A DNA stretch of 31,626 nucleotides, taken from the IMG/VR virus record IMGVR_UViG_3300027877_000003; one strand, given 5' to 3'. This DNA comes from an uncultured virus (IMG/VR IMGVR_UViG_3300027877_000003). Taxonomy: Duplodnaviria; Heunggongvirae; Uroviricota; Caudoviricetes. The notes beneath the pieces are model-generated. The model saw only the letters and a program-made list of their open reading frames with translations, searched no databases and was not told the origin of the DNA. The translations under genes were made by a program, and so were the position numbers. Every line of letters begins with the position of its first letter. Position 1 is the stretch's first letter. This document shows, in pieces, positions 6,882 through 12,399 of this stretch.

Positions 6882-6998
6882 TTACTTCTTTCTTAAAGGT
6901 TTACTTAAAATTCCCAAGAACTGTAAAAGTTTTATTACTGCTACTACTAATCCAACTAATGCTCCAATAACTCCTAATATAAGTAATATTAATTGCAT
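6882..6998 (-). CDS. small single-TM membrane peptide (38 aa)
   Basis: Hand translation MQLILLILGVIGALVGLVVAVIKLLQFLGILSKPLRKK; AAGGAG RBS upstream. Confidence 0.6.
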   Translation of the reverse strand: MQLILLILGVIGALVGLVVAVIKLLQFLGILSKPLRKK

Positions 6999-7960
6999 GA
7001 TAATTTACTCCTTTCTTTTAATATTCTTTCAATAGCTTCTTTACAATACTCTTCTTTTCTTTCAATGCCGATCCACTTCCTAGAAAATTTCTCGGCTACG
7101 ATAGCAGTTGTGCCTGATCCTATAAATGGGTCTAATACGACTCCAAAAATTTCGGGGCTACACGCTTTGATAGGAGTTTCTAGAAGATCTACAGGAAATA
7201 CAGCAGTATGATTTGTAGTACCTCTCTCCTTGCCTATAGGAATACTCCACACGCTTCTTTTATTCCTGCCTCTCTTTAATAATTTTTCTACATTTTTTCT
7301 ATTGCCTCCAACTCTAGGGGCATTGGCTTTATAAGGATCTTTTAGATTAGAATCTATTCTTAGAATATTTCTCCTTTGATCTTTTAGACTCTGTGTGGAT
7401 GGTTCAAACTGTTGCACAAAATAATATTTCTTAGTATGTAAAACAAAATGATATATGAATTCATAATCTACTGTAAACTTCTTTTCATTGCTGGTAGGAA
7501 ATGCATTGGTCTTATGCCAAATAAGAGTATGCTTTAATAACCATCCATCCTTTCCCATAGCTACTGAAAATAAACTGGGTATATTACATAGAGTTCCTTC
7601 TGGAAGTAAAGGGACAACTTTAGTTGCTGAAAAAAAAGAACCGGAATTTGTAGTTTGTTTTGTAGTTTTTCCTCCACTACCGGGAGTTCTAGTAAAATAT
7701 TTATCTCCTATATTTACAAATAGATTTCCGGAATCTTTCATCTTTGGTTTTAGATAATGAAAGATTCTAACTAGATTCTGTACATAAAATCTAAAATCTT
7801 CCTCCTGTCCAAGTTCATCATCTGCTACATATTTTCTAGCCATCCAATAAGGAGGAGAAGTAAATACCATATCTACAGAATTATCTTCTAAAGTAGGAAG
7901 AACTTCTTCTGCCTTTCCTAAATACAAAGTACCATAATCATCCTGATAGTAAGGATTCAT
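6989..7960 (-). CDS. DNA methyltransferase, beta class (N4-C/N6-A; SPPY suggests m4C)
   Basis: Motif IV FTSPPY near the N-terminus, HTAVFP, motif I VLDPFIGSGTT, WIGIE. Confidence 0.9.
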   Translation of the reverse strand: MNPYYQDDYGTLYLGKAEEVLPTLEDNSVDMVFTSPPYWMARKYVADDELGQEEDFRFYVQNLVRIFHYLKPKMKDSGNLFVNIGDKYFTRTPGSGGKTTKQTTNSGSFFSATKVVPLLPEGTLCNIPSLFSVAMGKDGWLLKHTLIWHKTNAFPTSNEKKFTVDYEFIYHFVLHTKKYYFVQQFEPSTQSLKDQRRNILRIDSNLKDPYKANAPRVGGNRKNVEKLLKRGRNKRSVWSIPIGKERGTTNHTAVFPVDLLETPIKACSPEIFGVVLDPFIGSGTTAIVAEKFSRKWIGIERKEEYCKEAIERILKERSKLSCN

Positions 7961-8309: not shown

Positions 8310-9014
8310 TTAATTTCCTTCCAATTCAAATTGAATTCTATCCTCAGCTAATTGAAAAATAACTGGGTCATTTTCGATACCAATACAGCTACGATTATTC
8401 CTGAGACACCAGATAGCAGTAGAACCACTACCGAGAAAAGGATCAAGAACAATATCCTCTTCGTCTGTAAAAGGTAAGAGCAAGCGTTCCATAAGCTTGA
8501 GTGGTTTCTGCCATTGTACATTATGTCCATCTAGTTTAATCCTTTCTTTTGAAGTAGTATGAAAGTTTCCTAAGTCATCAAATACATCACAAGGAATCTT
8601 TAATCCTGTCCCTTTCTTATCCAGAGAAGTACCAGCAGTTACTTTAGGAATCATTATTCTTTCTGGATAAAATTTATAATCATTTCCTTTTGCATAAATT
8701 AAAATATCGTCATGCTTTTTTGGGAAACATCTTCTAGAGATACCTCCCCATTCTTGTTTATAGATACACCAATTAATAAAATTATCTTCTCCTAAGATAA
8801 AATCTAACTCTAATTTATATTTATGAACGGTATGATAATCTGTTTGTACCATAAAAATTCCATTTGGCTTTAGTAACTGTAAAGATAATGCCATCCAGTA
8901 GAAATCATTACTTTCATAAATGCAATCTCCATAGATTAAATCTATTTTACCTTCCCAAGTGCCAATAAGATCCTCCGCTATTGACACATTATCTCCTTGA
9001 AATAATTTGATCAT
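8310..9014 (-). CDS. beta-class DNA methyltransferase-like protein with atypical catalytic motif
   Basis: Start MIKLFQGDN (ATGA overlap); IDLIYGDCIY in place of DPPY; WQKPLKLMERL; VLDPFLGSGST; CIGIE. Confidence 0.8.
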   Translation of the reverse strand: MIKLFQGDNVSIAEDLIGTWEGKIDLIYGDCIYESNDFYWMALSLQLLKPNGIFMVQTDYHTVHKYKLELDFILGEDNFINWCIYKQEWGGISRRCFPKKHDDILIYAKGNDYKFYPERIMIPKVTAGTSLDKKGTGLKIPCDVFDDLGNFHTTSKERIKLDGHNVQWQKPLKLMERLLLPFTDEEDIVLDPFLGSGSTAIWCLRNNRSCIGIENDPVIFQLAEDRIQFELEGN

Positions 9015-9250
9015 ATTGATTTTCCAATCATCCAAGCACAAAAGATTACTGCTATTCCTAAGACTATCCATAAAATTATTGGCTGATTGAAGATGGTTAT
9101 AGTAAGGGAGAGATAAAGTCCTACCGCAAGTGAAATAAATATAGCTAATCCAATTATAAATTTAATTAAACCAATCCAAAATCCGGCTTCTTTTGTTTCT
9201 ATTTCTTCTCCGATATAATCGTCCATTCTATGTTTCCTTTCTAATCCCAT
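9011..9250 (-). CDS. small two-TM membrane protein
   Basis: Two hydrophobic stretches after an acidic N-terminus. Confidence 0.6.
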   Translation of the reverse strand: MGLERKHRMDDYIGEEIETKEAGFWIGLIKFIIGLAIFISLAVGLYLSLTITIFNQPIILWIVLGIAVIFCAWMIGKSI

Positions 9251-11715: not shown

Positions 11716-11791
11716 CACCTTCGGAGAGACTCGAACTCTCATGATCCAATTACCCTTTCTTCACGTTAGAACCGTGAGGGGATACGAAGGT
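11716..11791 (-). ncRNA. tRNA-like RNA lacking a canonical D-arm (UCU/Arg-like anticodon)
   Basis: Minus strand reads ACCTTCG TA TCCCC TCACG GTTCTAA CGTGA AGAAAGGGTAATTGGATCAT GAGAG TTCGAGT CTCTC CGAAGGT G: perfect 7-bp acceptor stem, perfect T-arm, 5-bp anticodon-like hairpin with 7-nt loop. Confidence 0.75.
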
Positions 11792-11806: not shown

Positions 11807-11908
11807 TCATGGGTTTCTCTTCAACATCAATGCCACTTGTGCCAAGATCAATCCAGCCGCTATCAATAGTAGTCCTACAATTACCATCGTTGCAGATTCA
11901 GGGATCAT
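11807..11908 (-). CDS. 33-aa single-TM micropeptide
   Basis: Hand translation [45 protein letters not shown] overlap with the LPQTG gene stop. Confidence 0.65.
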
Positions 11909-12399
11909 CTCTCCCTCCATACGTATCTGTATACATTAAGTACAAGAATAATTGCCAAACACACCAATGCACCAGTAAAAAGCAACCTGAGATCATCGTC
12001 TATGCCCGTCTGTGGCAACATCGGTATCGGCGTGGGCTTAGATGGCTTATCCTGCGTTGCCGTTATTGTGGGCGTGTAGGTTGCAGGGGTAGGTGTCAGC
12101 GTCTGCTCAGGTACAGTCGCCGTCATAGTTGGGGTATCCGGTGGTGGCGTTTCTCCTGGCGTATCGCTTGGCTGTGGTGTATCCGTAATCTGCGGTGTGT
12201 CTGTCAGTTGTGGTGTATCCGTAGGGACTGGTGTATCAGTCGGAAAAGGTGTATCTGTAAGGAACGGTGTTTCCGTAGGCGGCAATGGAGTTTCACTTGG
12301 CTGTGGTGTGTCCGTTGGTGGGCATACTACTTCCGCCTTTGCTATACCAACCCATATCCCTGCAATTGCCAAGACGATAACGATTATAAACAGTCTCAT
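11905..12399 (-). CDS. Pro/Thr-repeat surface protein with signal peptide and LPXTG (LPQTG) sorting signal
   Basis: Signal peptide ending AKA-E, about ten xx(T/S)(D/E)TP repeats, LPQTG (12004-12018), TM helix, basic tail RYVWRER. Confidence 0.85.
12176..12276. repeat. 18-bp degenerate tandem repeat coding xxTDTP
   Basis: GGTGTNTCNGT units starting at 12176, 12194, 12212, 12230, 12248, 12266. Confidence 0.85.

Follow-up and report, generated by a model that had tools for sequence, protein, structure and literature searches.

Few shapes in biology are as strongly conserved as the cloverleaf. Normally, the D stem of a tRNA is stacked on the anticodon stem, and the chain has a nick between positions 44 and 10. 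In mitochondrial tRNAs that lack the D-arm, the anticodon domain is lengthened to compensate for the missing D-stem. The circularly permuted tRNA genes of Cyanidioschyzon merolae place the 3' half before the 5' half, and a circular intermediate restores a normal tRNA.

According to the accessible part of a 2024 paper, every known bacterial tRNA has the cloverleaf form, and the D-arm-lacking tRNA that was evolved to work in E. coli is an engineered laboratory construct (PMC11551756). The 8/4 and 9/3 allo-tRNAs, as presented in the accessible part of PMC5389517, are natural non-canonical tRNAs that came from genome and metagenome mining. D-arm-lacking animal mt-tRNAs, among them those of nematodes and mammalian mt-tRNA-Ser, are organellar, shortened and flexible and have lost the D-loop, as described in the accessible sections of a review of non-canonical tRNAs (PMC7609411). 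The word phage is absent from this review, and its accessible passages on the D-arm cover tRNA-Sec and mitochondrial tRNAs. Do bacterial phages encode natural tRNAs that depart from the cloverleaf?

The window analysed here is a stretch of 31,626 nucleotides within a 46.4-kb IMG/VR viral contig of 29.8% G+C. Direct reading of its minus strand, from 11791 to 11716, reveals a tRNA-like gene of 76 nt, in which the D hairpin is absent and a D-loop-like tract is placed 3' of the anticodon arm (anticodon UCU). The parts of this element are as follows.

11785..11791, minus strand: 5' strand of the acceptor stem, tRNA positions 1-7; 7 of 7 pairs with 11717-11723, all seven covarying in the family
11783..11784, minus strand: connector U8 A9; TA is invariant in the 53-sequence alignment
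11778..11782, minus strand: 5-nt block TCCCC, equivalent of positions 22-26; 5 nt long in nearly all members
11779-11781, minus strand: CCC, 5' strand of the long-range helix and analogue of the D-stem 3' strand; its pairs with 11753-11755 covary
11761..11777, minus strand: anticodon arm; 5-bp stem of 11773-11777 with 11761-11765, loop GTTCTAA at 11766-11772
11768-11770, minus strand: anticodon TCT, with G32 at 11772, read directly
11756..11760, minus strand: linker AGAAA, analogue of variable-loop positions 44-47; 3-5 nt in members, mostly with an AG or TG start
11753..11755, minus strand: GGG, 3' strand of the long-range helix and analogue of the D-stem 5' strand, positions 10-12; variants keep the pairing
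11741..11752, minus strand: D-loop-like junction strand T-AATTGGAT-CAT, with putative analogues of U13, A14, A15, G18, G19, A20, A21 and U48
11724..11740, minus strand: T arm; stem of 11736-11740 with 11724-11728, 5 of 5 pairs, loop TTCGAGT at 11729-11735
11716..11723, minus strand: 3' strand of the acceptor stem (11717-11723) and discriminator G (11716), read directly

Just 5 nt lie between position 9 and the anticodon arm, and no D hairpin is present in the MFE fold of the window copy or in the consensus fold of the family. We infer the canonical-position numbers given for the junction strand. The register of the long-range helix in the window is ambiguous by one base, because four C stand against three G. 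The discriminator G is followed by CAG, so that CCA is not encoded. A preliminary description of this locus had pointed to a perfect acceptor stem and T-arm, to TA-TCCCC as the only sequence between acceptor and anticodon hairpin, to the loop GTTCTAA with its central TCT and G32, and to the missing CCA; direct reading confirms each of these observations. The single-sequence fold energy of the window copy is ordinary (z = -1.5; 18 of 200 shuffles fold equally well), and support for the element is therefore comparative rather than thermodynamic.

How does this arrangement compare with the described systems? With canonical tRNA-Arg (RF00005; for example L002:1569-1642, the tRNA-Arg(UCU) of a related contig) the element shares the 7-bp acceptor stem, U8, the 5-bp anticodon stem with its 7-nt loop, U33, an arginine anticodon, A37, the 5-bp T stem, a TTCGA-type loop, the D-loop letters AA..GGA, the discriminator and the length of 76 nt. 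It also shares the genomic place: the canonical gene of L002 stands between a GMP-reductase-like gene and a primase, and the same two genes (59% and 53% identical, respectively) flank the rewired element. Unlike in canonical tRNA-Arg, the anticodon arm is preceded by the D-stem 3' strand and followed by the D-stem 5' strand with the D-loop, and the junction is three-way, not four-way. The acceptor stem and discriminator, the anticodon arm (5-bp stem, 7-nt loop, U33, purine 37) and the T arm of a cloverleaf are all present, but the D-arm hairpin and detection by RF00005 and ARAGORN are absent.

D-arm-lacking animal mt-tRNAs have the same topology of acceptor, connector, anticodon hairpin, connector and T arm, as far as the accessible part of PMC7609411 describes them. 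Both they and the phage family lack the D hairpin and have connectors on both sides of the anticodon arm. The phage family is, however, neither organellar nor reduced in size, and it has not lost the D-loop motif: it is full length, carries a complete D-loop motif (AATTGGA) in the second connector, is arginine-specific and occurs in phages of bacteria. With the permuted genes of Cyanidioschyzon merolae, the element shares tRNA blocks in non-standard order. Unlike in these genes, the acceptor strands in the window occupy the outermost 7 nt at either end of the element; with acceptor strands at both ends, circular processing cannot restore the canonical order, and the mature RNA itself must be rewired. 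The 8/4 and 9/3 allo-tRNAs have altered acceptor and T stem lengths and keep the D arm in its usual place, at least as outlined in the accessible part of PMC5389517, whereas in the phage family the D arm is gone. Like the phage family, the engineered D-arm-lacking tRNA joins a non-canonical fold to the bacterial translation machinery; in contrast to that construct, as the accessible part of PMC11551756 portrays it, the phage family would be a natural exception using bacterial hosts.

The family is a new structural variant of tRNA. Within the open-access full-text literature, we found no description of a tRNA with swapped blocks. Its genes are partly known as predictions; the architecture, the arginine specificity and the restriction to viruses appear to be undescribed in that literature.

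We collected relatives by pattern scans and by a covariance model. A first pattern for viral contigs, composed of the anticodon loop (anticodon fixed), the D-loop-like tract and the T-loop, matched 76 loci. Three chance matches and one truncated copy were set aside; together with the window copy, this left 53 distinct elements. Their sequences are very different, and 49 of them form all seven acceptor pairs and 50 all five T-stem pairs. A pattern for the exact junction, which was too specific, gave 0 matches in viral contigs. The covariance model assigns 75.4 bits to the window copy (E about 2e-18) and 52 bits or more to members, as compared to 32.4 bits or less for canonical tRNAs in the same loci; in two tRNA clusters it also retrieved further copies, whose anticodons are CCT, ACG and TCG. 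A second scan, without anticodon constraint, yielded at least 80 loci. Of the second-scan loci listed, 76 match the model at 54 bits or more and two more have weak, aberrant matches (78 with a hit in all), and two have none.

Pattern scans and model together provide 97 distinct full-length relatives, nearly all on viral contigs, with lengths of 74-81 nt and a single exception of 89 nt. The tract TAATTGGAT is common to all members of the alignment, but the search patterns demanded it; variants found by BLAST retain AA..GGA. The 89-nt element is an ACG-type member (G001:C10:170951-171039, minus strand, the same as L229:1501-1589), in which the D-loop-like tract and the T stem are separated by an extra small hairpin with a GCAA loop. 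Broken copies occur as well: L032 and L163 are truncated, and L135 and L150 are aberrant. The rewired UCU copy at L032:1481-1560 (plus strand; the same as L163) is without the 3' strands of the T stem and of the acceptor stem. A canonical tRNA-Arg(tct) follows it after about 20 nt, which looks like one form replacing the other.

All four helices covary, including the 3-bp long-range helix around the anticodon arm. In a MAFFT alignment that was not fitted to structure, 96.1% of cells pair and compensatory changes are found at 19 of 19 pairs; values as high as those observed occur in none of 500 shuffles, and pairing in slid controls is 39-45%. Four modelled pairs of the anticodon stem and four to five pairs of the T stem covary. 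In the long-range helix, the bases directly 5' of the AATTGGA tract pair with the block that precedes the anticodon arm, and the forms found are CGG/CCG, CTC/GAG, CCC/GGG, CAC/GTG, CAG/CTG, ACC/GGT, AAC/GTT, ACT/AGT, TCC/GGA, GCC/GGC and CGC/GCG. When 74 distinct rows are aligned by fit to the model, all four Watson-Crick types occur at the two inner pairs of the long-range helix, where no cell is unpaired; at the third pair, in the register specified in the model, 26 rows do not pair. In one subtype, a 4-bp long-range helix with a bulged G fits instead. RNAalifold alone recovers the acceptor, anticodon and T stems and no D hairpin; it does not predict the 3-bp long-range helix. In the MFE fold of the window copy, TA...TA extends the helix by two Watson-Crick pairs, an alternative that the invariant TA...TA could also adopt in the family.

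These results bear on the pairings that the preliminary description had proposed between the segment after the anticodon arm and ATCCCC. Pairing of GGG with CCC is supported by covariation. Pairing of GGAT with ATCC has to be given up: GGA does not vary, whereas the 5' column it would pair with covaries with the other strand; all four pairs are possible in just 9 of 94 distinct members. The view of TAATTGG as a displaced D-loop is borne out throughout the family. The check recommended there, the collection of homologs and a search for covariation among them, has a positive outcome, in that relatives were collected and their helices covary.

Standard tools overlook the window copy. ARAGORN reports zero tRNAs in the window and zero in the whole 46.4-kb contig, and Rfam at gathering score has no match in the window. 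At E<=10, Rfam matches no tRNA between 11600 and 11900, and near the element it returns chance-level plastid and lncRNA matches only. The model of the Y RNA-like (YrlA) tRNA-mimic RNAs (RF02553) does not match the element. A BLAST search of 211 nt of surrounding sequence against phages gave nothing meaningful. ARAGORN and Rfam had been named beforehand as ways to expose an ordinary tRNA or a known RNA family, and neither calls one in the window copy. The detection threshold of RF00005 is 29 bits or more; when this model was run on 13 family elements in 10 scanned loci, seven scored 29.5-39.2 bits, one scored 28.2 bits and five were without a tRNA hit. Canonical neighbours of the tested relatives score 32-70 bits, compared to 28-39 bits for those relatives that RF00005 matches. 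ARAGORN called the family element in 2 of 51 member loci.

Members are present in more than 250 cultured phage records, mostly unannotated. At least 80% of two enterobacterial variants is covered in 236 and 259 records, respectively, which include Felix O1-like phages, phi92 and its relatives, Vequintavirinae, Klebsiella phages and jumbo coliphages. Other cultured carriers are phages of Alishewanella, Streptomyces, Agrobacterium, Stenotrophomonas, Limnohabitans and Pseudomonas. Most cultured records have no feature at the site, and the few labels read tRNA-OTHER, tRNA, tRNA-Ser or tRNA-Val. In one Felix O1-like locus (L230; LR699048.1 26367-29432), all tRNA features are annotated opposite to the strand found by ARAGORN and the covariance model. 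For Shigella phage Sf14, the accessible part of PMC12482277 lists Arg_TCT between Ile_GAT and Ser_TGA and treats it as an ordinary tRNA, its structure unremarked. This tRNA order is the same as that around the rewired gene in the Felix O1-like cluster, and judged by cluster order, Arg_TCT of Sf14 would be a member of the rewired family.

In 185,579 species-representative prokaryote genomes (596 Gb), the first pattern had 25 matches, one of which is a true member. The tRNA cluster around this UCU-type copy is phage-like and includes a second member, the 89-nt element of ACG type; the contig, 201 kb long, was binned as a Cellvibrionaceae MAG and may be a phage or prophage. In 150 further genomes of the same phylum, with a limited number of candidates scored per genome, the model had no hit at E<=1e-6. 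The stretch around the window element is complete in four public runs from three studies, the source possibly among them. One run, possibly the source itself, contains an identical 19.5-kb contig, with identity over all 1101 bases compared. A run labelled as metatranscriptome, whose library is possibly DNA, contains a lone 197-nt contig of 11637-11833, identical, at depth 17, which covers the element and its near flanks only. A 151-nt contig from another RNA run is confined to the neighbouring ORF, and a further run yielded no contig; gaps in such coverage carry no weight.

The anticodons of the family point to arginine. Among the matches listed of the unconstrained scan there are 72 distinct full elements, with the anticodons TCT (40), ACG (18), TCG (6), CCT (4), GCG (3) and GAT (1); that is, 71 of these 72 carry an arginine anticodon in a scan that did not ask for one. 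The collection of 97 elements over-represents TCT, since the first pattern required it. Five arginine anticodons (UCU, CCU, ACG, UCG and GCG) occur in the family. Of 96 parsed members, all have U33 and A37, and 95 have an NCT or NCG anticodon (C35 with U36 or G36). Position 32 is C in 85, T in 10 and G in one, the window copy. Discriminators are G in 49, A in 34, T in 13 and C in none, and CCA is encoded in 50 of 97 distinct members. The GG of the D-loop-like tract has an A immediately 3' of it in the window copy as in every member seen (GGA motif), a putative analogue of A20. The identity set of bacterial ArgRS consists of A20, C35, U/G36 and A/G/U73 according to the accessible part of PMC9976931, and the family agrees with this set in C35, U/G36 and discriminator G/A/U; the A20 analogue may occupy the pocket that ArgRS recognises. 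Within single backbone subtypes, anticodon variation is confined to arginine anticodons, the expected product of selection for charging by ArgRS. One member counts against a purely arginine reading: L113:52-128 (plus strand) has the loop CTGATAC with an isoleucine GAT anticodon, on a backbone that is otherwise that of Arg(ACG). This element may represent an identity switch or a mischarging tRNA.

The minus-strand genes around the element make up a module for phage replication and nucleotide metabolism: ribonucleotide reductase, two DNA methyltransferases, dUTPase, an NT5C-like nucleotidase, a Toprim primase, a GMP-reductase-like protein, dNMP kinase, exonucleases, RusA, DnaB, a UvsX-like recombinase and DNA polymerase I. 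The two DNA methyltransferase genes are separate and lie close together (6989-7960 and 8310-9071, both minus strand). The element itself is about 420 nt upstream of the primase, flanked by a 64-aa hydrophobic ORF and a gene for a Thr/Pro-rich LPQTG protein (11905-12399, minus strand). The latter encodes 164 aa with a signal-like N-terminus, long Thr/Pro-rich repeats of TDTP type and a sortase-type LPQTG motif, and also with a hydrophobic segment and a tail of basic residues. The gene is part of an island rich in G+C (0.48-0.58, where the surroundings are at about 0.30), and its product has neither a Pfam nor a PHROG match. A phage-encoded sortase-anchored wall protein points to a Gram-positive host. 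A scan for promoters and terminators found none adjoining the element, and a longer transcript of the minus strand is probably processed to release the RNA. AGA accounts for 383 of 548 arginine codons on the contig, where no other tRNA was found.

Elsewhere, other tRNA genes are found within 1.5 kb at 37 of 51 member loci, up to 15 at a locus. Where other Arg tRNAs are near, the rewired ones mostly cover different anticodons: L025 combines rewired UCU, CCU and ACG with canonical UCG, and L046, L039 and L042 combine rewired UCU with canonical tRNAs for others. At 4 of 51 loci a canonical UCU tRNA is also present, so the rewired form is not always needed; in three of these four (L032, L038 and L053) the rewired copy is truncated or mismatched. 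At L012:26-101 (minus strand), ARAGORN detects an amber-reading tRNA with CTA anticodon, labelled Pyl, about 1.4 kb from a rewired Arg gene; this type of contig was seen five times, and TAG may be recoded in the phage. HNH homing-endonuclease genes lie inside or beside tRNA clusters with a rewired gene in loci such as L080 and L082; Streptomyces phage Mildred21, Salmonella phage SSBI34 and several Felix O1-like phages are among the carriers. Such endonucleases may help to spread these tRNA genes between phages.

We consider it likely that the window element is a functional arginine tRNA encoded by the phage, with the anticodon UCU to read AGA and a non-canonical, rewired core; we infer its charging and its three-dimensional fold. 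The order of the chain would be 1-9, 22-47, 10-21, 48-76, as if two adjacent inner blocks had been swapped: block 10-21, with the D-stem 5' strand and the D-loop, and block 22-47, made up of the anticodon arm with the D-stem 3' strand before it and most of the variable loop after it. The D-stem would remain as a 3-bp helix that lengthens the anticodon stem. The 3-5-nt linker would close the nick between 44 and 10, and D-stem analogue and anticodon stem would form one single long hairpin. The former D-loop (A14, A15, G18, G19, A20, A21) would run as a single-stranded junction straight into U48 and the T stem, and the A-T dinucleotide before the T stem would fit A21 beside U48. The usual contacts, U8 with A14, A15 with U48 and G18/G19 with the T-loop, may still form and produce an L-shape. 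This model of tertiary contacts also draws on established tRNA geometry, and covariation cannot test it because the contact bases are invariant.

Host RNase P and the CCA-adding enzyme would carry out maturation, and host ArgRS would charge the tRNA via A20, C35, U36 and G73. The product would supply decoding capacity for AGA, the dominant arginine codon of the phage. The simplest account of its origin would be a single rearranged tRNA-Arg gene that spread among phage tRNA clusters. As for the route of the swap, we may speculate about an internal tandem duplication followed by two deletions.

Could the RNA act outside of translation? A tRNA-like decoy or regulator would mimic tRNA-Arg for the anticodon nuclease of a defence system, for ArgRS or for some other factor. 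The essential confinement of the family to viruses, with a single prokaryotic member among the matches of the genome scan, agrees with such a role, and an altered core could shift which enzymes recognise the RNA. Phage tRNAs that neutralise tRNA-cleaving defences are known, as reported in the accessible part of PMC11464382. However, a decoy for one nuclease does not need five arginine anticodons that complement the canonical Arg tRNAs of the same clusters; nor does it need the discriminator bases of ArgRS, or an acceptor/T-arm minihelix with the CCA that half of the family encodes. The decay of rewired copies next to a canonical UCU copy (L032, L038, L053) further suggests that both forms do the same job. 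We therefore find a decoy or regulator quite unlikely. The preliminary description had offered two options, a tRNA mimic or decoy and a non-canonical Arg tRNA; covarying stems and arginine anticodons sustain the latter, and the decoy is disfavoured.

The window copy might also be a dead tRNA gene, scrambled by local rearrangement, or the functionless remnant of an attachment site. Standard tRNA finders reject it, its G32 is unusual, it has no CCA, and some copies of the family (L032/L163, L135, L150) are clearly broken. At the level of the family, this explanation is refuted, since the arrangement recurs in 97 distinct sequences and every helix shows compensatory changes. For the window copy itself it is highly improbable, given perfect acceptor, anticodon and T stems, a score of 75.4 bits, and the presence of members in tRNA clusters of lytic phages; the earlier argument that intact stems speak against decay was right. 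An attachment-site remnant was rejected, as both acceptor strands are present and members reside in lytic-phage tRNA clusters. The window comes from a metagenomic viral contig, which raises the question of an assembly or sequencing artefact. Its probability is negligible in view of the four runs from three studies that contain the complete stretch (the source may be included), of the 19.5-kb contig identical over the 1101 bases compared, and of the same architecture in hundreds of independently sequenced genomes of cultured phages. One other assignment of the parts, in which the element would have a D-arm with a giant loop but lack an anticodon arm, was rejected: the hairpin loop always has U33, an Arg anticodon and A37, and the AATTGGA tract never varies as an anticodon site would.

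Why would a functional arginine tRNA of phages have a rewired core? It is possible, if on balance doubtful, that the core is an adaptation to conflict between phage and host, which keeps what ArgRS, EF-Tu and the ribosome need and loses the shape that a tRNA-directed enzyme reads. The enzyme evaded could be a host defence nuclease or modifier that acts on tRNA-Arg, or a weapon of the phage that destroys host tRNA-Arg. If this is true, arginine tRNAs of the phage would stay usable while canonical ones are attacked. The family would then be a virus-only class of tRNA that translation accepts and that an attack on canonical tRNA-Arg leaves untouched, and it would be the first natural non-cloverleaf tRNA to work on bacterial ribosomes.

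The family represents a natural, widespread and apparently selected exception to the cloverleaf, one that has to function together with the usual ArgRS, EF-Tu and ribosomes of bacteria. All pieces of the tRNA core are kept and their order is changed, a natural experiment that separates shape from chain connectivity. Since there are members in coliphages that grow on E. coli K-12, charging, decoding and structure are testable. Annotation tools miss most copies, and inventories of phage tRNAs and analyses of codon usage consequently undercount arginine tRNAs. The scaffold may also be useful for the engineering of orthogonal tRNAs.
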